In this document: one piece after another, positions 42,692-64,000 of the stretch
Position numbering within the stretch: position 1 is the first letter of the stretch
Layout: each line of letters opens with the position of its first letter
Source: a virus
Taxonomy: Duplodnaviria > Caudoviricetes
Reading direction: 5' to 3' (one strand)
DNA length: 64,000 nucleotides
Virus record (IMG/VR): IMGVR_UViG_3300048672_000282
Coordinates: 810 to 64,809 of that record
Notes under the pieces: model-generated
What the model was told of the DNA's origin: nothing
Databases searched by the model: none
What the model saw: the letters and a program-made list of their open reading frames with translations, nothing else
Translations under genes and position numbers: made by a program

Positions 42692-45600
42692 TTAATCACT
42701 ATAAGTATGTATGTATTGCGTAGACGAACTAACAGAAGATGTTGATATGTTTGATGTGCTAGTATTTGTATTTGTATTGTTTGCTGTTATATTACTTGTT
42801 GAATTAGTTGTATTATTATTTGTATTGTTTGCCGTTATCGCACTTATCGCATTACTTGTTGATGTAATAGCACTGGTATTAGTATTTGTGGAAGTTGAAT
42901 TAACATCACTTGTGCTAGTATTATTACTTGTAACATTGCTTGTAGTATTGCTAATATTATCATCGGCTCCCACAGACGCGCTACCACTTAAACCCACCGT
43001 TGAACCTGAATGCACCTGTGCTGAAAAGTTAGTTGTTGATGCAAATGCAGAAACTAATTGACTCTGGACTTGTGCCATAGCCTTGTATCCCTGAGTTACC
43101 AAGTCTTTAAATGTTATCAAATTTGCAACATTCGCTTTTGCAGCCTCAATATCCAATTCAGCCTGTTTAACTAATGCTTCAATCTCATTTTTCTGTATCT
43201 GCACCTCGGCATTAATGCGTGTTCCCTCGGAATCAACCAACGTTCCAAAAGCCTGTGCATCAGTCTGATATACTCTTGATAATGCTTCAAGTTCTGAACT
43301 TTTCGCTTGAATCTGTGATTTATACACATCAACATTCGAGTTATTAATATCTACCGTTGCAGAAATACGCTTGGCTTCTGCATTAGTCTCAGTCTCGAAT
43401 AGACGAGTTAACATTTCATTGTTGCCAGTAATTGCTCTAATCCTTTCTGACTCAGCTTCTACCACTGTTTTAAAGCTATCCACCAACAATTTAGAACTAT
43501 TATTTATAGCTTGCAGACGTTGGCTCTCTGCTTCTACTTCCGTTCTATAAACACTGGCATTACCGTCATTAGTCGCAATAACAGATTTTAGTCTTTCTGC
43601 CTCAGCTTGTATCATTGTTTGAAACAAAGAAGCTATAGTTCGATTAGACTCATTTAGCGCATTAATTCTTGATGCTTCCGCATCGGTACTGGTACGATAA
43701 AGATTAACCTCGCCCTGATTTTTGTCAGTAATCGCTTTAAGCCTTTCACTCTCGCCTGTTATTTGCTTTCCATACAAGTCTATAAGCCCTGCATTAACGT
43801 CTGAAATACTTCTAAGCCTTGCGCTCTCGGCCTCTACACCTATCCGATAAAGTTCGCTAAATGTCTTGTTAACATTATTGATTGCTTCAAGTCTTGTTGC
43901 TTCTGCCTGTGTTTCAGTGCTAAATGTATCAACTTCGAGTTTTGATATTTCATTAAGTGCAGATAAGCGTTTTGTCTCGGCAGTCGTAGTAATATCATAT
44001 ACTGTAGCTTCTGTACGATTTAAATCATTCAGCGCGGTAATCCTGGCTACCTCGCTATCAACCGCTATTTTATATAAATCGGCTATAGTACGATTGCTTT
44101 CATTAAGGCTTTGCAATCTTTGTGTTTCTGCATCAGTGCTAGTCCTAAATAGTTCCACATTATTACGATTAACATCGCCAATGCTTGCAAGACGCTTGGC
44201 TTCTGCATCGATAGAGGCGCTATAAAGAGAAATATTATCCTTATTGATATTAGAAAGAGCTGAAAGTCTTGAGCCTTCTGCTTCAACATCAGTTCTATAC
44301 ATATCAGTAAATGTACGGTTAACCTCATTCAATGCTTGTAGCCTGGTGCTTTCAGCTTCCGTTTCTGTTTTAAATAACGTTATTTCCTGTGCATTTATTT
44401 CATTAAGACTGGAAATACGTTGTGTCTCAGCATCAGTGGTTATCTTGTAAACATTGGCATTTGTTTCGTTTAATGAATTTAGTGCCTGTATTCTTTGTGA
44501 TTCACTTTCGACAGCCATTTTGAACAAGTCAACAATAGTTCTGTTCGATTCATTTAAACTTTGAAGGCGTTGTGATTCTGCTGTTGTTACCGTTGCAAAT
44601 AAATCAACATTGGATTTGTTGGTTTCTATAATTGCTTGTAACCGCTTTGCTTCTGCATCTACGGATGCTGAATATAACGACACATTATCTTTATTGATGT
44701 TTGAAAGAGCTGATAACCTTGATGATTCACCATTTATACTAGCATTATAAACATCTACATTTGCGCGGTTAACCTCTGTAAGTGCATTTAATCTTGAACT
44801 TTCTGCATCGTTTGTCGTTTTATATAAATCCACTTCCATGCGGTTAATATCGTTATAACTTTGGATGCGTTTTGCTTCGGCATCCGTAGTAATCTGAAAC
44901 AAATTAGCTTCGGTATCATTTACCCTGGCAAGGGATTCAATTCTACGTGCTTCCGCTTCTACTGTTGCTCTAAACAATTCAGTCAATAAACGGTTAATAT
45001 CAGCTTCAACCTGTACTCTTGCTGATTCAGCCTGTACTCCTGTTGCATATACTTCTGCTTCGGTTTTGTTGCTAAGATTTATGCTTTCAATCCTGCGTCC
45101 TTCTGCATCAGTTTCAGTGCTGAAAACCTGTGCCTTAACCTTATTTGTTTCAGAAATAGCGGCAAGCCTTTCTTTTTCAGCCGTTACCAGAACTGAATAC
45201 AGTTCAGATATAGTTTTGTTAATGTTATTTTCGGCATCAAGACGCTGCGCTTCTGCATCAACCTGAGTTTTAAAAATATCGGCATTAACTTTATTGCTAT
45301 CAGAAATAGCCAAAAGCCGTTTGTATTCACTATCATTAGTGCTTGAAAATGCATCGACATTAGTTTTAAATGTTGTATTTAATGCTTCTATTCGGCTAGT
45401 CTCAGCCTGTACTCCAATCTGATATATTTGAGCATTGGTTTGATTAACCTGGTTTAAGGCATTTAGACGTTCACTTTCTGCCTGAATCTGTGCCTTAAAT
45501 ACCTCAACCTGTTTACCAAGAATATCTAGTGGAACATCTACATTCACTCGCACATCTGCATCCAACTTTTTAACCTTGGCATCAGTTACAGCCCCGTATG

Positions 45601-48175
45601 CAGCTACACGACTACTGAAAGCATCAACGGTTGATTTATAAATATTTGCCTTTAATTCTTCCCCGGTAAGTTCTGATTTATAGCCGTCATATTCCAGGGA
45701 TTTTGCAGATATAAGAGCGGAAAACTTGCGTATGGACGCATCAAATAATTCAAGCTTGCTTCTATCTACCTCTATTTGAACCTTAACGCCTTCCAATTCA
45801 GATTTATATAAATCGAATTGACTTACTATCGCCTGTATTTTTGCCGTATAAAGTGCAACAGCTTGAGCGTTTAAATCACCTATGATTTTTTGGCCTTCCA
45901 GTGTCGCCTTGTATAATTCAACCTTGGCAAGTTCACCTTTGATACGCTCTGAATACACTTGAGCCATTGTTTGATATAACTGGACATTAGCATTGAAGTG
46001 AGATACTTTGGCCTGGAATATAGAAATTGCGGCTTGGATAGCTGCAATAGCACAATCCAATGAACGTTGCTGTACTGCGCTGTGATACTGAATTAATTGT
46101 GCCTCTAACTGAATAGCGTTTGTAAAGGCAAACTGATAATTTTGCTGTTCTAGTAATGCTTGAGTAGTAGCTATATTACGTGACTCGGTAATATCAGCCA
46201 TCGCCTTAGCTTCTTGCGCCTGATAAATTCTCTCGGCCTGATCGCCTGTAGGCATTGTCCAGCCACTACGTGCAAAACTACGCGTAATCTGCTTAATTAG
46301 CGCGTTTGCTGCTGCGCTTGTACGTTCCCTTGCTTTATCCCAATTCGCCTGTAAAACAGCGTCTATTGGCCCTGTGCTGCGATAATTTGCTACGAGCGAT
46401 AAAAGCTGCGCCTTTAATTCATTATTGAGCATTGACTCATAATCGCTTTCTGTCCACACCAGCTCACCCGTTGGCGCATTGCCTAAAGGTTCTGGCAATA
46501 TTCCCTCAAAGGTTACATCTATCAATGTCGGCGCGGATGGTAAGGTTAATGCTTCCATTGTTGGCGCATCGGGTAATACATAATCTGGAACTTCCGGGAA
46601 TAGAAATTCAGACTCCATTACTGGCTCTTCTGGTGCAGCTGTATTGAATGGCTGCGGCGCTGGTATCTGATTTAATACTGGTTCTTGCGCTGTCAATACG
46701 GGAACATCATCCAGCGTAACGGGATCAACACTTCCTATTACTGCATCTGCTGGCGCTGTTGGGAATAATGGTGTTGTGCTTTCTGGAACCGGAGCAACAG
46801 GGAAAAATGGAACAATGTCCGGATTTTGTGGCGCACTAATGAAATTCGCTGTGGCATCCTGTAAGTCCGGTGCTATTGGAAAATCCGGTGTTGCTGGGCT
46901 AATAGCTGGCGAAGCAGGGAACGCGCCTGTCGCATCAAGCAATTCAGGACTGGCAGGAAAATCGCTAACTGGCGCTACAATACTGATTGATTCTGGAAAA
47001 TCTGTAGTAATCTCGTTCAATGAAGGAGATACCGGAAAATCTGGAACAATGTCACCCATTGCAGGTGCAGCAACAAAAGCAGGTGTTGGCGCTGTTACTG
47101 TTGGTTTTTCGTCAAACTGAGGCACAACAACATCAATTGCTGGTGCTGTTGGAAAATTAGGTGTCGCATCATTTAATACTGGTTTTGCATCAAATGAAGC
47201 AGTTGTTGAGTCCAATGTTGGAACTGCACCAAAATTAGGGCTTGGCGCTGAAATAACAGGCGCATCTGGAAAATCAGGCGTTATATCATCAATAGATGGC
47301 GCAACACCAAAATTAGGGCTTGGCGCAACAATATCAGGAGCGGCAACAAAGTCACTAACTATTGTTTCAATGCTTGGTTTTGCTGGAAAATTAGGCGTTG
47401 CATCTGAAATAGTTGGTGTTTCTGCAAAAGCAGGAGTTGCTGGATCAAGAGTAGGTGCATTACCAAAATTTGGACTTGGCGCTGATATGCTTGGCTCTGT
47501 TGGAAAATCTACAGCTATGGCGTTAATTGTTGGCGCTGTATCAAAATTCGGCGTTGGAATTGAAAGTGTTGGTGGCGTTACAAAATTTGGAGTTGAAACT
47601 TCAACACCAGGACTTTCAGGAAAACTGCTATCCGTACTTAATAGGGATGGAGCACTTGCAAAAGAGGCAATCGCATCATCAAGCGTTGGTGCAGAACTAA
47701 AACTTGGCGTTGGCGGCGTTAAATCTGGTGCAGTTTCAAAATTTCCTACTGCCGCTGTTATTGTTGGAGATACAGGAAAACTTGCTTCTGGAATTGTTAT
47801 ATCAGGCTGTACAGGAAAATCGGGAACTGCCTCAATAATATTGGGCGCTATCCCTGGGAAATTTGGCGTTATCGACTCAAGTCCTGGCGCATCTGGGAAT
47901 GTTGCATCAAGAACTGGTTTTGTAATAGGCTCTGGCGACACATAAGGTGATACTGTAGCTGCTACAGTAAAATGTGTCATTTCTACTTCTGGCGGGAATC
48001 CTGTCCCCTCAATAGTATCCGCTAATGCCCGTATAGTTTCATTAGCCAAAACAATAGCTGACTCTTCCTTTTCCAAGGCATTTTGCATACCAGCCCAGAC
48101 AGTAACATTTGCCTGTTGGCGCTCTAAATCTATTTCTTGCTCTACGCGTTGAAAGCTACTAGCTGCTTCTGTCAT
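42692..48175 (-). CDS. 1827-aa repeat rod protein (probable tail or ejection-tube component)
   Basis: About 30 x 13-aa Pro-rich repeats, about 30 x 25-aa AExxRL helical repeats, S/T/N-rich C-terminus. Confidence 0.7.
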   Translation of the reverse strand: MTEAASSFQRVEQEIDLERQQANVTVWAGMQNALEKEESAIVLANETIRALADTIEGTGFPPEVEMTHFTVAATVSPYVSPEPITKPVLDATFPDAPGLESITPNFPGIAPNIIEAVPDFPVQPDITIPEASFPVSPTITAAVGNFETAPDLTPPTPSFSSAPTLDDAIASFASAPSLLSTDSSFPESPGVEVSTPNFVTPPTLSIPTPNFDTAPTINAIAVDFPTEPSISAPSPNFGNAPTLDPATPAFAETPTISDATPNFPAKPSIETIVSDFVAAPDIVAPSPNFGVAPSIDDITPDFPDAPVISAPSPNFGAVPTLDSTTASFDAKPVLNDATPNFPTAPAIDVVVPQFDEKPTVTAPTPAFVAAPAMGDIVPDFPVSPSLNEITTDFPESISIVAPVSDFPASPELLDATGAFPASPAISPATPDFPIAPDLQDATANFISAPQNPDIVPFFPVAPVPESTTPLFPTAPADAVIGSVDPVTLDDVPVLTAQEPVLNQIPAPQPFNTAAPEEPVMESEFLFPEVPDYVLPDAPTMEALTLPSAPTLIDVTFEGILPEPLGNAPTGELVWTESDYESMLNNELKAQLLSLVANYRSTGPIDAVLQANWDKARERTSAAANALIKQITRSFARSGWTMPTGDQAERIYQAQEAKAMADITESRNIATTQALLEQQNYQFAFTNAIQLEAQLIQYHSAVQQRSLDCAIAAIQAAISIFQAKVSHFNANVQLYQTMAQVYSERIKGELAKVELYKATLEGQKIIGDLNAQAVALYTAKIQAIVSQFDLYKSELEGVKVQIEVDRSKLELFDASIRKFSALISAKSLEYDGYKSELTGEELKANIYKSTVDAFSSRVAAYGAVTDAKVKKLDADVRVNVDVPLDILGKQVEVFKAQIQAESERLNALNQVNQTNAQIYQIGVQAETSRIEALNTTFKTNVDAFSSTNDSEYKRLLAISDSNKVNADIFKTQVDAEAQRLDAENNINKTISELYSVLVTAEKERLAAISETNKVKAQVFSTETDAEGRRIESINLSNKTEAEVYATGVQAESARVQVEADINRLLTELFRATVEAEARRIESLARVNDTEANLFQITTDAEAKRIQSYNDINRMEVDLYKTTNDAESSRLNALTEVNRANVDVYNASINGESSRLSALSNINKDNVSLYSASVDAEAKRLQAIIETNKSNVDLFATVTTAESQRLQSLNESNRTIVDLFKMAVESESQRIQALNSLNETNANVYKITTDAETQRISSLNEINAQEITLFKTETEAESTRLQALNEVNRTFTDMYRTDVEAEGSRLSALSNINKDNISLYSASIDAEAKRLASIGDVNRNNVELFRTSTDAETQRLQSLNESNRTIADLYKIAVDSEVARITALNDLNRTEATVYDITTTAETKRLSALNEISKLEVDTFSTETQAEATRLEAINNVNKTFSELYRIGVEAESARLRSISDVNAGLIDLYGKQITGESERLKAITDKNQGEVNLYRTSTDAEASRINALNESNRTIASLFQTMIQAEAERLKSVIATNDGNASVYRTEVEAESQRLQAINNSSKLLVDSFKTVVEAESERIRAITGNNEMLTRLFETETNAEAKRISATVDINNSNVDVYKSQIQAKSSELEALSRVYQTDAQAFGTLVDSEGTRINAEVQIQKNEIEALVKQAELDIEAAKANVANLITFKDLVTQGYKAMAQVQSQLVSAFASTTNFSAQVHSGSTVGLSGSASVGADDNISNTTSNVTSNNTSTSDVNSTSTNTNTSAITSTSNAISAITANNTNNNTTNSTSNITANNTNTNTSTSNISTSSVSSSTQYIHTYSD

Positions 48176-50253: not shown

Positions 50254-50775
50254 TTATCTCTCGGCTAGTTTAAATTGTAATGTGGCATCTATAGTTTCAT
50301 CATTATCTTTAGTAGCGTGAATATGTACTTCAAACACGCCTAATGTCCGTGCTACTGCATCATCTGGTATAGCATCAATAAACCACTGGCATGTAGTATC
50401 ATTAAATGTTGTATTAGATAATGTCACACCATTAGTCGCAGTAAAATCAACATTCGTTATGGTTTCATCAACAGGCAATAGATTATAAGCTACAGTTTCC
50501 CATGTTAGCCCTAAAGTTCCATCTATTGTTTCAGATCCAATCGTTGTCCCCCATATTGGCTCTGTAGCACCTGATTTACCTGGATTCTTGACTTTATAAT
50601 AAACGCCTGTGAATTCAGTAGCAATACAAATCCCATAATTATCATCATCAGGTTTTAAATAAACTGTATTTGCTTGCCATACAAACGGACTAAAAGTAAT
50701 TCCAAACAGTCTATCGGTATCTGGATCATGTAAACCGCATTTGAATGGGCCTTTTGAACCCGCTGGATATAACAT
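50254..50775 (-). CDS. Structural protein, possibly a fibre adaptor
   Basis: WQANTVY...GKSGATEP.W..DG..TWET carbohydrate-binding-like motif; follows the fibre gene. Confidence 0.55.
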   Translation of the reverse strand: MLYPAGSKGPFKCGLHDPDTDRLFGITFSPFVWQANTVYLKPDDDNYGICIATEFTGVYYKVKNPGKSGATEPIWGTTIGSETIDGTLGLTWETVAYNLLPVDETITNVDFTATNGVTLSNTTFNDTTCQWFIDAIPDDAVARTLGVFEVHIHATKDNDETIDATLQFKLAER

Positions 50776-53700
50776 CAGTTTATAACCTCATTTGGTAAAT
50801 TTTCTGTAATAAGTTTATCAGGTATAGACTCAAATATTAAATTATTTTTTAGTGACTCAAAAATCAAATTATCCTGTTTAAATTCAACCAATAAATTACT
50901 GGATTTAAACTCAACAATAACTGTTTTTGGTACGTCTTCGAATACCAGCCATTCAACAGCATTTTGATATAATCCTTGTTTTAAAATGTAATTAACATGC
51001 CCTACATAGGTAATTATTCCATATCCAGGTTGCCTGTTATATTCAACAAACAAATTTAATTCTTTGCCTGTGTAAAATTCATTTCCAGAAAATAAATCAA
51101 CATAGTGCATCTTTCCATAATTAAACTCAATTTCATTACCTGAATACCTAATAACGCCTTCTTCCGGCTGCGTTGTCTTGTCAAGTGTCCATTGTCCTAC
51201 AGGTTCTCTGCCTCGATAAACCATACGCCCATAGCCAATATCTATGTAGAATTGCCATGTTAGTTCAGATAGTTGTCCGGCATATTCAACGACACCACTG
51301 GTAATGTCTATCCATACATGTTCAGTATAAGAAAATTCAGGAATCTCCCCAGCATAAACGATAGAGCCATTGCCTAAACTTATGCCTAAATCATTGCTTG
51401 GTGCATAACCACTATAAATGACTTGTCCTGCTTCAATTGCTATAGCTAAATCCTGAAATGGCGCATTTCCTGTATAAATTATAGAACCATTGCCAATCGA
51501 TACGGACAAATCTAATACTGGTTGTTGCCCGGTATAAACTATCGAACCTGCATCGATGGCTATGATGCTTTGATAGGTTAGTGTAGTTTGTTTTCCTGAG
51601 TATATTTCTTGTCCGTAAACAGGTTGTGTCCACTGGTTATATGTCTGGTTCTCACTATTTTGCTGTCCTGCATAGTGTTCTTCACCATAACCAGGTTGAG
51701 TAAATCTGTTGTCACTGATATTTTCTACTGGTTGCTGTCCAGAATAAACCTCATTGCCATTGCCGGTTAACGTCCAGTGGTTATCTATGAAAATTTCTGT
51801 GTTCTGTTGTCCTGAATAAACAATCGAGCCATATCCAGGTTGCGTCCTATCGCCAAGCTCATCAATACTAAGCGTTGAATTATGCCCGGTATAAAGCATA
51901 TTGCCATATAACGGCTCAACACCTGCACTGGACTCTGCATAAAATGGTGCGCCTAAGAATCCATAATTAAGTGTTTCTGTGTGTAGTGGCTTAGAATCTA
52001 CATTGCAAAATGGTTGGCCTAAATACGGATGATTAAGCGTAAACAGCTTATATTTACCATATAAAAATAACTCAGTTCCTAAGTTTGGAGCACGTCCAGT
52101 ATATATCAAACTGCCGGATGATGGCGTTACCGTTTGATGCTGTGCTTGTTCTTCTGTTGGTTGTTTTCCGGTATAGACAATGCTCCCTGCTTCAAGCAAT
52201 GCGCTGAATGTTTGTATCAGTTGTGATTGCTGTCCGGTATAAGCTTCAATTCCGTTTGTTGGTATTGTCCATTGATTGTCTTCCTGTAGTTCAATAGGCT
52301 GTTGTCCGTTATAATTTTCAATACCATTAGCAGGTAATGTCCATAAAAACTCTGTTTGAACTTCTACAGGCGAATTTCCGGTATAAACTTCTATACCATT
52401 ACCTGTTAATGTCCATTCATTATATGTCTGTTCTTCTGTCGCTTGCTGCCCGTTATAGATACAATTTCCCTGTGCAGGATTAGTAAATAGATAATCTGTT
52501 GTGACTTCTACTGGCTGTTGTCCACCATATAACACAGCGCCTTGTTGAATCGTTATCCATTGGTTTTCTGTTTGCGCTTCGGTTAATAGTTGTCCTGTGT
52601 AAGAGACAATTCCATTAATCGGCAATACGCTGAATGTTTGAATTTCTGTATTTTGGTTTCCACTATATATCTCAATACCGTTTGCAGTAAATGTCCACGT
52701 ATTCAGCGTTGTCAGTGCAGTTAAATCGTTTCCTGTATAACTTACAATACCGGAATCAGGCAATGTCCATTGATTAATAACTAATATTGATGTTAATTCT
52801 TGTCCTGTATAGGTCTCGACACCATTGTTTGTCAATGTCCATTGGTTATCTGTTTGTACCTCAACAGGCTGCTGTCCGTTATAACTTTCAATGCCATTAT
52901 TTGTTAATGTCCAAACATTTGCGGTTTGTACCTCTGTCGCTTGCTGTCCTGTATATGTTTCTATGCCATTTCCAGATAATGTCCACATATTATCTGTCTG
53001 AACTTCTGTATTTTGTTGGCCTGTATATGCCTCTGTTCCGTTACCTGGACTTGTCCATGCGTGATCGCTTACCAATGCCGTTGGTTGCTGTCCTGTACAA
53101 ATTAATTCTCCGTTAGCTGGTAATGTCGTAAAACCAAACGCTTCTATACTTAACGTTGGCTCATGTCCAGTATAGACAATATTGCCTTGTGTTGGCGCTA
53201 CACCTGCGCTGGACTCGCCATAAAACGGCAACCCAATATACGCATAATCGAGCGTTTCTGTATGAAGTGGCGTTGAATCGATAGTACAGAAAGGATTGCC
53301 AAGATAAGGATAATCCAGAGTTACAAGCTTATGCTTTCCGTATAGCCATAGTCTTTCATCTAAAGTAGATTCATGGCCTGTATAAACAATTACACCATTT
53401 GTAGGCGTTGTCCATTGGTTATCAGTTTGTACTTCGGTATTTTGTTGTCCGGTATAAAGCTCATTACCTTGTCCTGGCAGTGTTGCAACACTTTCAAACA
53501 ATGTGCTTTGTTGCCCGGTATATACTTCGCTTCCTTGCCCTGGCAATACATCGTCATCATGTACTGCAAATAACGTTTGCCCTGTTAAAACTTGTGAGCC
53601 TTGTGCTGGACTGGTAAAGTTATTATAAGTTTGCGCCTCTGTTGGCGTTTGTCCGGTTAAGACTTGTGAACCTTGCCCCGGCAAAGGAGTAATACTGTCA

Positions 53701-54392
53701 ACTTCTTCCAATGCAAAGAATACACTTGCGGTATCCGCTGCCACAATAGTTGGATCAGAAGTGTCACTGGTTCCAGTCAATACGCGATATTCACCAGCAA
53801 CAACGATGTTTGTATCTGTATTTCCTGTTGTTGTCGATACAAGGCTGGTTATTGACGTATGGCTTGCTGTCGCCGTGAATGTGGTTGTTTCTGACTCAGA
53901 CGCAATGCCACGAACAAACATGTACTCTTTTGAAGGCAATCCAGAAACAGTCATGCTGCCTGGATCAGCCGCATCATTGGCTAAGGTTTGAACGGTTCCT
54001 GCGACAACAACATTTTTACCGGCTGTCTTAGTGAAATAACGCGCTCTAGCTGCCAAGTCAGTAACGTTAGCAGACAAATTTATGGTAATTGAAGAAGGAT
54101 TTGTGAAAGCTACAGTAGTAACACTGCGCCAAACCGATACGGTAGCCCCACCAGCCGCCGCGCCTTGTCCATTGGTGAACTCAGCGCATTTTGTATAATT
54201 GTTGCCCTTGCTATCGGTTACTGAGGTAACTTCGCTAAAGTCTCCGTCCGTGGTGTTGGTATTGTCTTTTGCTATCCAGACAAGAATAAGCGTTCCTGCC
54301 GCTGGTGTGGCAGTAGTATTGATATTGACAGTGTTGGCACTTGCCGTTATTACCGCTGTGCCAAGTGCTGTCCCTGATGTGCCGAAGGCCAT
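50775..54392 (-). CDS. Long repetitive fibre-like virion protein
   Basis: Many 21-27-aa G..xYTGQQPT repeats and two copies of a 50-aa insert. Confidence 0.65.
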   Translation of the reverse strand: MAFGTSGTALGTAVITASANTVNINTTATPAAGTLILVWIAKDNTNTTDGDFSEVTSVTDSKGNNYTKCAEFTNGQGAAAGGATVSVWRSVTTVAFTNPSSITINLSANVTDLAARARYFTKTAGKNVVVAGTVQTLANDAADPGSMTVSGLPSKEYMFVRGIASESETTTFTATASHTSITSLVSTTTGNTDTNIVVAGEYRVLTGTSDTSDPTIVAADTASVFFALEEVDSITPLPGQGSQVLTGQTPTEAQTYNNFTSPAQGSQVLTGQTLFAVHDDDVLPGQGSEVYTGQQSTLFESVATLPGQGNELYTGQQNTEVQTDNQWTTPTNGVIVYTGHESTLDERLWLYGKHKLVTLDYPYLGNPFCTIDSTPLHTETLDYAYIGLPFYGESSAGVAPTQGNIVYTGHEPTLSIEAFGFTTLPANGELICTGQQPTALVSDHAWTSPGNGTEAYTGQQNTEVQTDNMWTLSGNGIETYTGQQATEVQTANVWTLTNNGIESYNGQQPVEVQTDNQWTLTNNGVETYTGQELTSILVINQWTLPDSGIVSYTGNDLTALTTLNTWTFTANGIEIYSGNQNTEIQTFSVLPINGIVSYTGQLLTEAQTENQWITIQQGAVLYGGQQPVEVTTDYLFTNPAQGNCIYNGQQATEEQTYNEWTLTGNGIEVYTGNSPVEVQTEFLWTLPANGIENYNGQQPIELQEDNQWTIPTNGIEAYTGQQSQLIQTFSALLEAGSIVYTGKQPTEEQAQHQTVTPSSGSLIYTGRAPNLGTELFLYGKYKLFTLNHPYLGQPFCNVDSKPLHTETLNYGFLGAPFYAESSAGVEPLYGNMLYTGHNSTLSIDELGDRTQPGYGSIVYSGQQNTEIFIDNHWTLTGNGNEVYSGQQPVENISDNRFTQPGYGEEHYAGQQNSENQTYNQWTQPVYGQEIYSGKQTTLTYQSIIAIDAGSIVYTGQQPVLDLSVSIGNGSIIYTGNAPFQDLAIAIEAGQVIYSGYAPSNDLGISLGNGSIVYAGEIPEFSYTEHVWIDITSGVVEYAGQLSELTWQFYIDIGYGRMVYRGREPVGQWTLDKTTQPEEGVIRYSGNEIEFNYGKMHYVDLFSGNEFYTGKELNLFVEYNRQPGYGIITYVGHVNYILKQGLYQNAVEWLVFEDVPKTVIVEFKSSNLLVEFKQDNLIFESLKNNLIFESIPDKLITENLPNEVIN

Positions 54393-56922: not shown

Positions 56923-57015
56923 TGCTTTATTCCTATAATAATGTATAATACCAATGTGGCTAGGGATTCGAACCCGAAAACTCCTTCAGTAAGAGCGCCA
57001 CATCCATTTACTGAA
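56922..57015 (+). promoter_or_regulatory. Promoter and structured leader of the HNH cassette
   Basis: TTGCTT-16-TATAAT; ATGTGGC...GCCACAT three-way junction; loop TTCAGTAA complementary to TTACTGAA. Confidence 0.6.
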
Positions 57016-57032: not shown

Positions 57033-57588
57033 ATGAAACAAAAATTATTACCCCTCTGTTGAATTTCTTAATGAGTGCTTCACTTATAATCCAGATTCAG
57101 GTGAACTATTTTGGAATTATAGGCCATTACACCACTTTTCTAATTCAGGCAGACAAACAATGTTTAATAATTTGTATGCCTATAAATCTGCCTCTACATT
57201 TTCTAATACAACTGGCTATCTTCAAATAACCATTAGTATACAAAAAAAGAAATCGCCATATAGAATACACCGTATCATTTATAAAATGATGACAGGTTTA
57301 GAACCTGATGAAATTGACCATATAAACCATATTCGTACTGATAATCGTTGGGTTAATTTAAGAAACTCATCTTCCACTCAAAATAAACAAAATAAATCGA
57401 TGCACCACAATAACGTAACTAAACGCAAAGGAGTTACATTTCATAAACTTTCCAATAAATTCATGGCTAGAATACAAGTTGATAAAAAACCAATTTATTT
57501 GGGCCTATTCAAAACTTCTGAACTTGCAGAAGAAGCTTATTTAATAGCATCCAAAAAGTATTTTGATAATTTTCACTATCGTAATTAA
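57033..57588 (+). pseudogene. Free-standing HNH-AP2 homing endonuclease with a +1 frameshift at CCCC (57051-57054)
   Basis: GGAG RBS; MKQKLLP then SVEFLNECFTYNPDSGELFW in the next frame; HRII..M, IDHINH.R.DNR..NLR, KGV...ARI....K.IYLG.F. Confidence 0.8.
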
Positions 57589-58155: not shown

Positions 58156-59556
58156 TTATGCACATGAAGTATTGAAACTTTTGTGCTTCTCTAATTGTAA
58201 ATCTGCTCCATATTTTATAGTATGTGCAATTAGCCCATCACCTTTTACATCTATTTCAACAAATTCACTAATCATACTTTGTAATTCAAGCCATTCCCAG
58301 CATTGCGTAATCATCCACCCTTCGCACTTAAATTCCCTGTCGCCGCATTTAACTCTGATAACCTCGTTGCCATCGTTCTCAGGCTGTGCGTAAGCATGGT
58401 GTTTGTCATCAATCAGGCATGAATCAAAGCCATATACCGCATACTTGCTAAAGCCTAGCATCAATAAAAGCTGAAAAGCCCTGAGCATAACAGTCATGCC
58501 GCCGTAGACAGGATACACCTCATGCTCTTTACCTGTTTGTTCTGTAAACTCTGCTACCGCTTCCTTTATCGCCTCTGCGCTGCCACAGTGCCACAGTGTT
58601 ATTTGCTCTCTCGGTATCGACTTAACCAGCTCAGGATCGCATTGCGAGGCAATCAGATAATGGCATGACGGGATAATAGGCTCAACAAAACGCTTATTAA
58701 AAGCTCTCGCATCTAAAACAATCTGTAAATCAGGCTTAATTCCGTGTTCAATAGCCCAATTATACGCGCCGTTAACTGTGACTACCGGGATTCCAAACAT
58801 CTTGTTTAATCTTATCTCATCAACATAATCGTTAATGCTTGGCCCACCAGCCAGGATAATAAGCTCTTGTGTTTGCGCCTCGAACGGATGCGCTTCCGGC
58901 AATCCTAATTCAAGGTTTTTTAATATATTGGCCTTAATCTGTTCATCTTCTGTGTTGACACTTGAACGTGCCTTAACGTCACTTCCATTTGCCCAGGCTG
59001 AAACGATAAATGTACAGAATATTTCATGCTCTACACCATCAATGATATTGCATCCAACCTGTTCAAGTTGTTCTTTCCACCATTCATAAGGTTTAACTGT
59101 AAGGTGTAGTTGTTCTCCTATGAGCTGCCCTAAACTATCTTCTTTAGTGCATATCTGGAAAAAAACATAACGCGAACTTGTGACAATATTCCTTAGCACA
59201 TCCTTAACTTTGTGCTCTGGTATATGTTCCATAACATCTGTACAAAACCCGAATTTGGCAATTTCGCCTTTAATTGGTTTAGTAATATCATGTTGCTCAA
59301 ATGACAGATTATCGCCTAAACTATTTCTTACTTCTTCATCTAAACAGTTATCGGTGAAATCCAGCATCCTAACCTTTGCATAGGCTGATAACCTTAATGC
59401 TGCCCTTCCAGTGCCACAGCCATAATCGATAATCGTATCGGATTTTCTTGGCTTGGCTTGTTTAACAAATTCATCTACACAAATATCACCAGGCGACCAA
59501 TCCCTATATTCTTGATGGTTCCAAACTTTTTGATATTTTTGAACTTCTATTTGCAT
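58156..59556 (-). CDS. Fusion of a class I SAM methyltransferase and a Maf/MptE-like (DUF115) domain
   Basis: IDYGCGTGRA, FCTDVMEHIP; IILAGGPS, TVNGAY..I.PD...LDAR, GG.TV.LRA..L..LGF....YGFDSC. Confidence 0.75.
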   Translation of the reverse strand: MQIEVQKYQKVWNHQEYRDWSPGDICVDEFVKQAKPRKSDTIIDYGCGTGRAALRLSAYAKVRMLDFTDNCLDEEVRNSLGDNLSFEQHDITKPIKGEIAKFGFCTDVMEHIPEHKVKDVLRNIVTSSRYVFFQICTKEDSLGQLIGEQLHLTVKPYEWWKEQLEQVGCNIIDGVEHEIFCTFIVSAWANGSDVKARSSVNTEDEQIKANILKNLELGLPEAHPFEAQTQELIILAGGPSINDYVDEIRLNKMFGIPVVTVNGAYNWAIEHGIKPDLQIVLDARAFNKRFVEPIIPSCHYLIASQCDPELVKSIPREQITLWHCGSAEAIKEAVAEFTEQTGKEHEVYPVYGGMTVMLRAFQLLLMLGFSKYAVYGFDSCLIDDKHHAYAQPENDGNEVIRVKCGDREFKCEGWMITQCWEWLELQSMISEFVEIDVKGDGLIAHTIKYGADLQLEKHKSFNTSCA

Positions 59557-62577: not shown

Positions 62578-62702
62578 GATAAAAATCCTTCTGTCATCTC
62601 GACAGTAGAAGCTCGTTAGAGCATTTAATAGGCTGGATTAAACCAGATAGATATTATATAGCATGTTTTTACTTTTGTGTAAATTTATTTTTTACTAAAA
62701 AT

Positions 62703-62729
62703 AAAAAAGCCCACTTTAACATGGGCTTT
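62703..62729 (-). terminator. Intrinsic terminator after the major capsid gene
   Basis: AAAGCCCAT-GTTAAA-GTGGGCTTT followed by a U-tract. Confidence 0.75.
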
Positions 62730-62751
62730 AATATTTCATTAACTGGCTAAA

Positions 62752-63399
62752 CTAGGAGCCTTGAGATCCCCAGATTCCGCGAAAATCACTCCAACCGAAT
62801 GAGTAACGTTCACGCGCCTTAAAGCGGAAATTTCCAGTATTAAAGTCATCTTCCATCTTGGTATTGATCGCAACACGAGTAAATCCACGCAAAGAATCAG
62901 TTGCATCGCTCTTTACAAACCATGCGTCTGAGTCAGTTAACCGAGTTACAATAATTGGATCACGCCCAAAAATACCTTTTTTATTGATAGCATTAACATC
63001 ATTGTCCGCTGTGTTAGTACGCAATGCACTGTCAAGCAAACGACAGGTTACGAATTCCAATTCAGGAGGGATGATAACATCAACAGCTTTCAATGCTATC
63101 GGAATACCACGATTATCTTTACATTTGCGAATCTGAATCAAAATATCTTCTAAAGAAGATTCTGAAATATCCGCTGGTGTGCTCAAAATGTTACTCTGAG
63201 TTCCACCATCTAAAGGATGGTTAGTAGCCATCAATGCCACACCATCACCACCAGTATAAGAGCCAGAAAATCCGTTATTTAAAACGGATGCGGCCTTTAT
63301 TTCTTTAGTATGCTGCATACTTCTTGCCAATGCGCGTGCGTATTTACTGCCCATGCTCATGTACAGGTTGTCTTCAATCGCTTCTTGTGTAATGCTAAA
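62752..63399 (-). CDS. Major capsid protein, exon 2
   Basis: FSITQEAIEDNLY...ARALARSM.HTKE..AA.VLN, GGDGVAL....HP, DF.TGN.RFKARERYSFGWSD.RG. Confidence 0.9.
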   Translation of the reverse strand, partial: FSITQEAIEDNLYMSMGSKYARALARSMQHTKEIKAASVLNNGFSGSYTGGDGVALMATNHPLDGGTQSNILSTPADISESSLEDILIQIRKCKDNRGIPIALKAVDVIIPPELEFVTCRLLDSALRTNTADNDVNAINKKGIFGRDPIIVTRLTDSDAWFVKSDATDSLRGFTRVAINTKMEDDFNTGNFRFKARERYSFGWSDFRGIWGSQGS

Positions 63400-63650
63400 C
63401 CATGTATTCAACAAACTGCGTTAGGGTTTGCCCGGTACTTAACCAGCTAACAATTACTTGTTAGAGTAGACTATCTCTTAAACCGCTTACGGTTTCTCTG
63501 CGCTTCGGGCTACTTAGCCCTACTCCCTTTCGGGATAGTCGTTACACCTTCCTCTTTCGAGGCTTGGCACGGTATTGTCCAATTTTGGATATTCACCGTT
63601 TTCACAGAGTTTTCATTAGTGAGTTACCTCACTACGCGCCCATTGTCTTA
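63400..63650 (-). ncRNA. Group I self-splicing intron, 251 nt, IA-type core, no ORF
   Basis: 5' exon ends in U and the intron ends in G; P3 CUCUGUG/CGCAGAG, P4 ACGGUG/UACCGU, P7 GACUA/UAGUC, P7.1, P7.2, P8, P9; excision restores ETVALA-FSITQEAIED. Confidence 0.92.
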
Positions 63651-63908
63651 AGCGAGTGCAACCGTTTCGTGGTTGTAACGCGAAGTCCAGGCTTCACCTG
63701 CTTCGTCATAGGTTATTGCTGAACCTTCCGGCTTAACTACTGCCGCTCCAAAGCCATTAACCAGTTGATCTTCTTCAAACGCCTTTTTAGATGAATCCAT
63801 CTTAAAAACTTGTTTGTATTCTTCGGGGTAAGAGTTGTATTCTAGGCCCCAGACGGTATTTAAACCGTCTTGCAGTAATTTTGCAAACTGCGCTCTATTC
63901 ATAGCCAT
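63651..63908 (-). CDS. Major capsid protein, exon 1 (spliced product 301 aa)
   Basis: MAMNRAQFAKLLQDGLN..WGLEY, S.KAFEED....GFG.A.VKPEG..I.YD, RYNHETVALA. Confidence 0.9.
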
Positions 63909-63910
63909 GA

Positions 63911-64000
63911 CTAGATACCCCCTACGCCAGCGACAACACGAGACATAACATGCTCGGCTATCAACACTTCAACTACAGAATATGCCCCGGCAACATTAAC
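63911..64000 (-). CDS. C-terminus of the head protein upstream of the capsid gene, partial
   Basis: ...VNVAGAYSVVEVLIAEHVMSRVVAGVGGI-stop, ending 2 nt before the capsid ATG. Confidence 0.6.
   Translation of the reverse strand, partial: VNVAGAYSVVEVLIAEHVMSRVVAGVGGI

Follow-up and report, generated by a model that had tools for sequence, protein, structure and literature searches.

Why does the gene for the major capsid protein of a freshwater phage break off after 86 codons and resume 251 nucleotides (nt) further on? The question arises at the right end of the 64,000-nt stretch analysed here (the window), which covers positions 810-64809 of a 64,809-bp IMG/VR virus record, IMGVR_UViG_3300048672_000282, classed with direct terminal repeats. 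On the minus strand the first part of the gene ends ...RYNHETVALA, and the next codon, an in-frame TAA, is the first codon of the insert; the sequence runs ...CGTTACAACCACGAAACGGTTGCACTCGCT|TAAGACAATGGGCG... and then, 251 nt on, ...GAATACATGG|TTTAGCATTACACAAGAAGCG.... An earlier interpretation made from the letters of the window (the sequence-only reading) had taken the insert for a minus-strand group I intron that splits the capsid open reading frame (ORF), and the two exons and the insert are indeed found where it placed them (Table 1). Our analysis indicates that the insert is very probably an intact, compact group IA intron without an ORF of its own, which lies in an HK97-fold capsid gene, would be removed by ordinary splicing of the late transcript and is carried as a selfish passenger. 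An intein, a frameshift and a split gene were also considered and rejected, as the 251 nt of the insert are not a multiple of three and open with a stop codon. By eye, no ribosome-binding site was seen ahead of the TTG frame that precedes exon 2.

The covariance-model search that had been proposed along with the sequence-only reading gave a clear answer. The group I intron model RF00028 matches the minus strand at 63447..63660 with 86.6 bits (gathering score 50) and an E value of 1.1e-20, over model positions 1-253 of 253, and this is both the sole Rfam match in the window and the sole RF00028 match in the whole 64,809-bp record. The centroid fold gives P1 (CGCUUA/UGGGCG), P2, P3, P4, P5, P6/P6a, P7.1, P7.2, P8, P9 and the P9.1 hairpin, with a fold z-score of -3.76 for the intron and none of 200 shuffled sequences equally stable. 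P7 (GACUA/UAGUC; GACUA ... AAGAGAUAGUC) is missing from this fold, since a nested prediction has no room for the pseudoknot that it forms with P3; the Rfam alignment shows it, as do invariant columns of the family alignment described below. In the Rfam alignment, P7.1 and P7.2 fall in a segment inserted after P7 and ahead of the 3' strand of P3. Every helix listed in the sequence-only reading is present as written, and the same holds for the wobble pair it had placed at the 5' splice site (U63651-G63640) and for the terminal G of the intron (63400). It had also described the intron as free of an endonuclease ORF, in keeping with which the only sense-strand ORF of at least 30 aa is a GTG frame of 31 aa.

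The core of the intron is shared with a large family. Megablast of the locus against cultured phages yielded matches to no more than 35-44 nt of the intron core, all in Pectobacterium phages (35 records). With a more sensitive blastn of the intron, 215 cultured-phage records with many different hosts matched the core, and in none of them was 80% of the intron covered. An exact 21-nt motif spanning P7/P7.1 occurs in at least 119 viral contig stretches, and 80 of these motif loci were fetched. A 22-nt piece of the P2 hairpin had no exact match in viral and metagenome contigs, and a 22-nt piece of P8-J8/7 had none in metagenome contigs, searches that possibly left out the window's own record and do not show uniqueness. 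Running Rfam on the 14 motif loci most similar to the query gave 19 group I introns scoring 50.5-94.4 bits. The family alignment comprises 19 sequences including the window copy, with L136, equal to L160 in score and length, omitted. RNAalifold predicts 44 pairs for these 19 introns, and in 36 of them at least one sequence has changed on both sides with the pair kept. Such compensatory changes span P3, P4, P5, P6, P7.1, P7.2, P8 and P9: six of the seven P3 pairs show compensatory changes or are kept in 18 of the 19 sequences, changes on both sides occur at least once in every pair of P7.1 and in four of the five of P7.2. The strands of P7 are invariant in the family and hence give no covariation signal.

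Introns of subgroup IA are distinguished by extra P7.1 and P7.2 hairpins between P7 and the 3' strand of P3, a criterion that reportedly goes back to Michel and Westhof in 1990. As both hairpins are present at this position and covary across the 19 introns, the intron can be placed on structural grounds in subgroup IA, the assignment that the sequence-only reading had made from the same two hairpins. Subtype IA2 makes up more than half of viral group I introns according to PMC11835236, so that the window intron is a likely candidate for IA2.

Family membership also bears on whether the element could be a dead intron in a broken capsid gene, carried by a defective phage or a non-viable variant. 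Splicing is here a prediction, and the intron has no endonuclease that could maintain it, both of which would fit such a remnant. However, the window copy keeps all of the family-invariant columns, and its Rfam score is high within the family range. The phage genome is complete and its ends match, and in two sequencing runs described below the intron-bearing form has a depth equal to or above that of its flanks, as would be expected for a replicating phage. We regard a dead intron as highly improbable, and read the window copy as intact.

The interrupted gene is, as judged from profile matches and a structural model, that of an HK97-fold major capsid protein. Exon 2 matches the Pfam family PF25209 (Phage_capsid_4) over profile positions 82-260 of 262 (E 1.4e-9), which leaves about 81 positions of the profile unmatched by exon 2; exon 1 is 86 aa long. 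Exon 2 also matches PF10124 and the major head protein families of PHROG. With exon 2 as the tblastn query, 23 cultured-phage records were matched, the best being DSL-LC04, the Roseobacter phages CRP-901 and CRP-902, the Pelagibacter phages HTVC023P and HTVC027P, and Planktothrix phage Pag-Yong1. Searching the PDB by sequence with exon 2 gave no matches, and for this reason a fold search was used. The unsplit capsid protein of a close relative, L007, was modelled by AlphaFold with an alignment of 20 relatives, yielding a model of moderate quality (mean predicted local distance difference test, pLDDT, 68.7; predicted template-modelling score, pTM, 0.67). Foldseek of this model against the PDB placed phage capsids first, namely those of phiXacJX1, HK97, NF5 and a gene transfer agent (GTA), with E values of 2e-8 to 1e-7 and a template-modelling (TM) score of about 0.5. 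The junction (residues 86|87) lies in a strand of the model formed by residues 79-89, just before a long helix at 99-127, and the block around it is the best conserved part of the capsid protein alignment.

If the insert is an intron, then removing exactly these 251 nt should restore the gene of intron-less relatives. The joined exons encode a protein of 301 aa. In the four cultured-phage records that were opened, the capsid gene is a single coding sequence (CDS) of 903-918 nt, which starts 258-261 nt before the exon 2 match, and the spliced product aligns with all four of these unsplit proteins without a gap at the junction (HETVALA|FSITQEAIEDN against HETIALAFSLTEEAVEDN and similar). Relatives of the capsid protein were found in 301 viral-contig stretches, and in each of the best 80 of these, which were taken for the junction comparison, the homologue of exon 2 follows that of exon 1 directly, with 0 nt between them. 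A blastn of the intron against the same best 80 of 301 loci found no matches.

The relative L007, one of these best 80, defines the boundaries most closely. Its capsid protein is 96-98% identical, and its gene is without exactly the 251 nt, reading GCACTCGCT TTTAGTATT where the window reads GCACTCGCT [251 nt] TTTAGCATT. At the junction site the two differ by the insert and one synonymous base only (AGT versus AGC at 63394), so that the spliced junction forecast earlier, GCACTCGCT-TTTAGCATT, is carried by intron-less genomes except for that one base. Placement of the 251-nt indel is ambiguous by one base, a T being present on both sides, and we set the boundary at 63650..63400 because only with that placement does exon 1 end in U and the intron in G.

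The same difference is found in metagenomes. Ten sequencing runs contain part of the locus, and two of them, X1 and X2, contain nearly all of it; these are one freshwater and one freshwater-sediment metagenome, from different studies. The intron-bearing Logan contig piece 63364-63679 has a depth of 66 in X1 and 33 in X2, and a contig form that skips exactly 251 nt has a depth of 22.9 in X1 and 26.3 in X2. In X2 there is a second strain in exon 2, represented by a contig of depth 17.4 with 55 differences over 481 nt beside an identical contig of depth 27.2. The divergence of this second strain is about that of L007 in exon 2, and the intron-less form probably belongs to an L007-like strain that occurs beside the intron-bearing one. 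Run X3, from a third study, has the exon 2-intron junction at a depth of 2. The intron is present or absent at one exact site among close relatives, both in the comparison with L007 and within X1 and X2, and this polymorphism demonstrates gain or loss, not the mechanism behind it. Many contigs in X1, X3 and X4 match the intron core alone (about 63499-63580) and then run into unrelated sequence, so that sister introns are common in these waters.

On the favoured account, splicing would follow the ordinary group I pathway. The ribozyme signature, the precise boundaries, the restored frame, the polymorphism and the family membership are observed, whereas splicing activity and any mobility are inferred. 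The late capsid transcript would fold into the P1-P9 core, and an external guanosine held in P7 would attack after U63651, the U of the wobble pair in P1. The freed exon 1 would then attack after the terminal G (63400), joining the exons as ...GCACUCGCU-UUUAGCAUU... to give the 301-aa capsid protein. The in-frame UAA at the start of the intron would halt ribosomes ahead of the ribozyme core. The intron would most simply be a selfish passenger: its site lies where the protein is most conserved, one strain has it and a co-occurring close relative does without it, and it belongs to a large family of phage introns that are often found in capsid, portal and polymerase genes.

Several observations weigh against this account. 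By eye, the P10 pairing with exon 2 is weak, and P1 is only 6 bp long. Among the sequencing runs searched for the locus, no RNA run contains the sequence, and spliced RNA has never been seen. There is no endonuclease inside the intron or among the ORFs upstream and downstream of it. X1 and X2 are possibly the samples behind the assembly of the record. Both are taken to be DNA runs by a guess ('DNA?'), and in the case of RNA the contigs lacking the 251 nt would come from spliced transcripts and not from an intron-less allele. The depths in X1 are also rough, as 66 and 22.9 add up to 89 against about 56 in the flank.

The dependence of the capsid protein on splicing raises the question of whether the intron might act as a regulator, with capsid output tuned by splicing efficiency, for example through the pool of guanosine or guanosine triphosphate (GTP) or through the translation state. 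There would be no capsid protein without splicing, and the title of Sandegren and Sjoberg 2007, as it appears among the citations of PMC8541194, ties the splicing of T4 introns in vivo to translation and growth state. However, the intron is dispensable, as neither the closest relative nor any of the best 80 of 301 relatives has it and an intron-less form is present in the same runs, and the sequence holds no sensor beyond the ordinary guanosine-binding P7. GTP levels in cells far exceed what group I ribozymes need to bind their cofactor, which counts against regulation by the guanosine pool. We consider a regulatory role very unlikely, and the coupling between capsid output and the guanosine pool that the sequence-only reading had suggested gains no support from intron-less relatives and a guanosine site of the normal kind.

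How a passenger without an endonuclease would spread is a separate matter. Homing in the usual sense calls for an endonuclease inside the intron, and there is none. Searches of the whole genome with HNH, GIY-YIG and LAGLIDADG_3 gave no match, and HNH_3 gave one, a free-standing gene with a weak AP2 domain (Table 1). This gene is about 5.8 kb from the intron, on the opposite strand and against the direction of its neighbours, among virion genes. Alignments with its relatives begin at residue 7 of the open frame that starts at 57037; the N-terminal 41 codons are without an in-frame start, no start codon precedes 57160, and an ATG at 57033 is in another frame, so that the gene may be frameshifted near its start or contain an assembly error there. 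Its protein is only faintly similar to the intron endonuclease of Pectobacterium phage PP90 (E 0.097), and none of ten loci with relatives of this gene holds an intron. On the grounds of distance, faint similarity and intron-free relatives, we rejected a link between this gene and the capsid intron.

An endonuclease acting in trans, from this phage or a co-infecting one, could nevertheless cut the intron-less site (collaborative homing), or the intron could protect the site from cutting. Either would be compatible with the account of a spliced selfish passenger and would concern its spread only. The presence/absence polymorphism between co-occurring strains fits such a process, related introns carry HNH_3, HNH, GIY-YIG or LAGLIDADG ORFs, the genome has one candidate gene of its own, and collaborative homing is a topic named in the reference list of PMC10448857. 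A further hint comes from the divergence around the site. The L007 capsid gene and the joined exons of the window differ at 69 of 909 columns, with 5 differences in columns 1-347 and 64 in columns 348-909, the junction falling after column 258. Gene conversion accompanying the gain or loss of the intron would leave such a tract of low divergence at the site, but this is suggestive only, since selection on a conserved block or ordinary mosaic recombination could be alternative causes. Given this, and the position, missing start and intron-free relatives of the HNH_3 gene, we think a trans-acting endonuclease unlikely as the explanation, though less so than regulation or a dead intron.

Is a capsid gene an unusual home for such an intron? 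We surveyed the host genes of the 80 motif loci, taking the longest open frames on the intron strand that lie immediately upstream or downstream of the motif, and scanned the resulting 138 frames of at least 60 aa against Pfam at E 1e-5. Capsid families account for 21 of the 138 frames (P22_CoatProtein 11, SU10_MCP 5, Gp10A-like 3, Phage_capsid_3 1 and Phage_capsid_4 1) and portal families for 8 (Head-tail_con 4, Phage_portal 2 and Portal_Mu 2). On the side of DNA metabolism there are 10 DNA_pol_A frames and 2 of ribonucleotide reductase (Ribonuc_red_lgC). Endonuclease families are represented by HNH_3 (13), GIY-YIG (5), HNH (3), LAGLIDADG_2 (2) and Endonuclease VII (1), and a further cluster of 14 frames is HNH- or endonuclease VII-like by PHROG only. 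Counted by clustering and representatives, about 21-22 of the 80 loci have the intron in or beside a capsid gene of one of six capsid families: 11 are of the P22 type, 5 of the SU10 type (among them L095) and 3 of the T7 type, and the remainder are L119 (the Pfam family of the window gene), L120 (by PHROG only) and the single Phage_capsid_3 frame, whose locus was not identified. The sample is biased, as it requires the exact motif and draws on at least 119 stretches, its frames were assigned without inspecting each intron, and a frame beside the motif may belong to a neighbouring gene and not to an exon. With that proviso, capsid genes seem to be an ordinary home for this intron family, and structural genes appear at least as common among its hosts as genes of DNA metabolism. 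The sequence-only reading had presented a capsid-gene intron as unusual against a background of DNA-metabolism hosts, a view that does not hold given these counts and the capsid-gene introns already published for phages LittleE and Tuc2009.

Some loci in this family have features of their own. In the viral contig L095 (2318-4084, minus strand), four group I introns scoring 82.8-91.4 bits are packed into 1.8 kb, and a 210-aa stretch between two of them matches SU10_MCP (E 5e-40); the capsid gene of this contig seems to be divided into about five exons. In L119 (9109-10972, plus strand), a Phage_capsid_4 capsid gene has a group I intron (94.4 bits) at its extreme 3' end, and an HNH-type ORF (PHROG 2255) lies about 120 nt beyond it, either as a 3' ORF of the intron or as a free-standing endonuclease gene beside it. 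L145 (3952-4500) and 13 similar frames are endonuclease-like ORFs of about 180 aa that end 5 nt before the P7 motif, in introns of P22-type coat genes; they have no Pfam match at 1e-5 and match only HNH and endonuclease VII families of PHROG (E 2e-8 to 1e-13).

The closest parallel in a cultured phage is the mycobacteriophage LittleE, for whose capsid-gene intron splicing was demonstrated by RT-PCR (reverse transcription-polymerase chain reaction) and protein sequencing, as set out in Pope et al. 2013 (PMC3706429), which also cites a capsid-gene intron in the lactococcal phage Tuc2009. As in the window, the LittleE intron interrupts the gene of the major capsid subunit, with a U closing exon 1 and a G closing the intron, and only some related phages have it. 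In contrast, it is about 820 nt long with an endonuclease ORF, was called 'most likely group I' and comes from a phage of a high-GC Gram-positive host, whereas the window intron is 251 nt long, ORF-less and clear in its IA core, with splicing predicted. That paper also reports demonstrated splicing for an ORF-less 265-nt tail-gene intron of BAKA. The BAKA/Optimus case resembles ours in being a compact, endonuclease-less intron in a virion structural gene that was delimited through an intron-less relative, and differs in the gene (tail) and the group of phages.

A nearer relative by sequence is found in Pectobacterium phage PP90 (KX278419.1; our locus L087). Its intron belongs to the same family, with 31 nt of the P7/P7.1/P7.2 core identical, and like ours it sits in a virion gene of a phage with Gram-negative hosts. 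It differs in its length of about 760 nt, in an HNH_3 ORF that precedes P7, and in splitting the portal gene instead of the capsid gene. Its match to RF00028 is low (30.5 bits, E 6e-5) because the endonuclease ORF forms a large insertion. At positions 1918-2602 of this record, two CDS annotated as 'head to tail connecting protein' flank a CDS for an HNH endonuclease, with no intron annotated. Judging by the sequence, PP90-type portal genes are split by a related, unannotated intron. A further 34 Pectobacterium phage records share the PP90-type core match, and none has an intron annotation at the match.

The T4 introns of td, nrdB and nrdD and the DNA-polymerase introns of T7-like phages belong to subgroup IA. 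The window intron shares with them the IA architecture with P7.1 and P7.2, the early in-frame stop and a bacteriophage host, and the polymerase intron cores of Yersinia T7-like phages match it at 88% over 50 nt. They differ in that they interrupt genes of nucleotide and DNA metabolism and mostly carry or adjoin an endonuclease gene, and the similarity is confined to the core. Introns in the terminase and polymerase genes of Shewanella phage KASIA were shown to splice, according to PMC8541194. For gut jumbo phages, PMC12880540 reports 2,513 predicted group I introns, about 206 nt long and spread over 136 of 139 genomes; of 76 that were tested, 37 were backed by RNA reads. In our full-text literature search, which did not cover subscription journals and supplements, there was no report of a capsid-gene intron in relatives of HTVC023P, CRP-901 or DSL-LC04. 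The search likewise found no survey of how frequently capsid genes host group I introns, though the supplements of PMC12880540 and PMC11835236 may list host genes.

The window intron is thus one of many such introns in structural genes of environmental phages, and capsid-gene introns as such have been published before. The survey points to structural genes as one of the main sites of this intron family in environmental phages; the view that phage introns belong in DNA-metabolism genes comes from cultured phages. More tentatively, the intron may belong to a large, undelineated clade of compact IA introns with a near-invariant P7/P7.1 core, which would prefer virion genes (at least six capsid families, portals and terminase) across unrelated phage lineages; its ORF-less members would be strain-level polymorphisms, moved in trans by the endonucleases of sister introns or shielding a conserved capsid site during co-infection. 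We find such a clade possible but doubtful. A practical consequence concerns annotation: gene callers would report the capsid gene of the window in two pieces, one of 86 aa and one of about 220 aa, and recognition of the intron gives the 301-aa protein. The same problem is present in public records, the PP90 portal being annotated as two CDS with no intron. Finally, the intron-bearing and intron-less strains form a natural pair that shares samples and differs near the site by one synonymous base, and it could serve the study of how ORF-less introns spread or persist.

Table 1. Features of the capsid locus and of the rest of the window, in window coordinates
Feature	Position	Strand	Basis and remarks
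Capsid exon 1, 86 aa (MAMNRAQF...HETVALA)	63651..63908	-	ORF; aligns to residues 1-86 of unsplit capsid proteins
Capsid exon 2, 215 aa + stop (FSITQEAIEDN..., starts FSITQEAIEDNLY)	62752..63399	-	PF25209 Phage_capsid_4, PHROG, tblastn
Predicted group IA intron, 251 nt	63400..63650	-	RF00028; opens with UAA in frame with exon 1, last base G
P1	63637..63654	-	Exon CGCU + intron UA (63654-63649) pairs with UGGGCG (63642-63637); sequence and centroid fold
P2 hairpin UAGUGAG-GUAA-CUCACUA	63617..63634	-	Sequence, Rfam alignment, fold
P3 (63609-63603 with 63502-63496), enclosing P4-P6, P7 5' strand, P7.1 and P7.2	63496..63609	-	Rfam alignment, fold
P7 5' strand GACUA (63540-63536), P7.1 UCCC-GAAA-GGGA (63535-63524), P7.2 GGGCU-AAGU-AGCCC (63520-63507)	63507..63540	-	Rfam alignment
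P8 (63495-63480), J8/7 AAGAGA, P7 3' strand UAGUC (63473-63469), P9 (63464-63447)	63447..63495	-	Rfam alignment, fold, covariation
3' tail: P9.1 CUGGU-UAAGU-ACCGG, possible P9.2 (CAAAC/GUUUG), terminal G 63400	63400..63446	-	P9.1 from centroid fold; P9.2 by eye
Hairpin + T-run, likely intrinsic terminator (AAAGCCCA...TGGGCTTTTTT)	62700..62745	-	3' of capsid stop codon, by eye
HNH_3 + weak AP2 gene, free-standing	57037..57588 (open frame; 57160-57588 from first start)	+	Profile search; the genome's only endonuclease gene by four families
466-aa protein	58156-59556	-	SAM-methyltransferase domains (residues 33-147) and MptE-like domain (residues 210-382; PF01973, E 3e-18); among virion genes
Cpn10 (GroES)-like protein, 131 aa	1233-1628	-	PF00166, E 3e-6; between portal and scaffold + capsid genes
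Very long ORFs, 4506, 1827 and 1205 aa	25257-38777, 42692-48175, 50775-54392	-	ORF listing

The record represents a complete freshwater phage genome of about 64.7 kb with matching ends. Its first and last 127 bases are identical (window 63874-64000 versus record positions 1-127), as would be expected if a circular or terminally redundant genome had been assembled with an overlap; the annotated 'direct terminal repeat' of exactly 127 bp resembles an assembler overlap on a circular contig and not a measured physical end. A possible transfer RNA (tRNA)-like remnant at about 56950-57010 was dropped, as ARAGORN found 0 genes in the window and Rfam nothing there at E values up to 1. Nearly all long ORFs of the window are on the minus strand. 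The capsid/intron locus lies at the right end of the window, and its upstream genes resume at the left end of the record. A Pfam scan of the proteins neighbouring the intron left five without a family and found one to be Cpn10-like. The genes run in the order portal, Cpn10-like gene, three small genes and capsid gene, and the same order is found in relatives.

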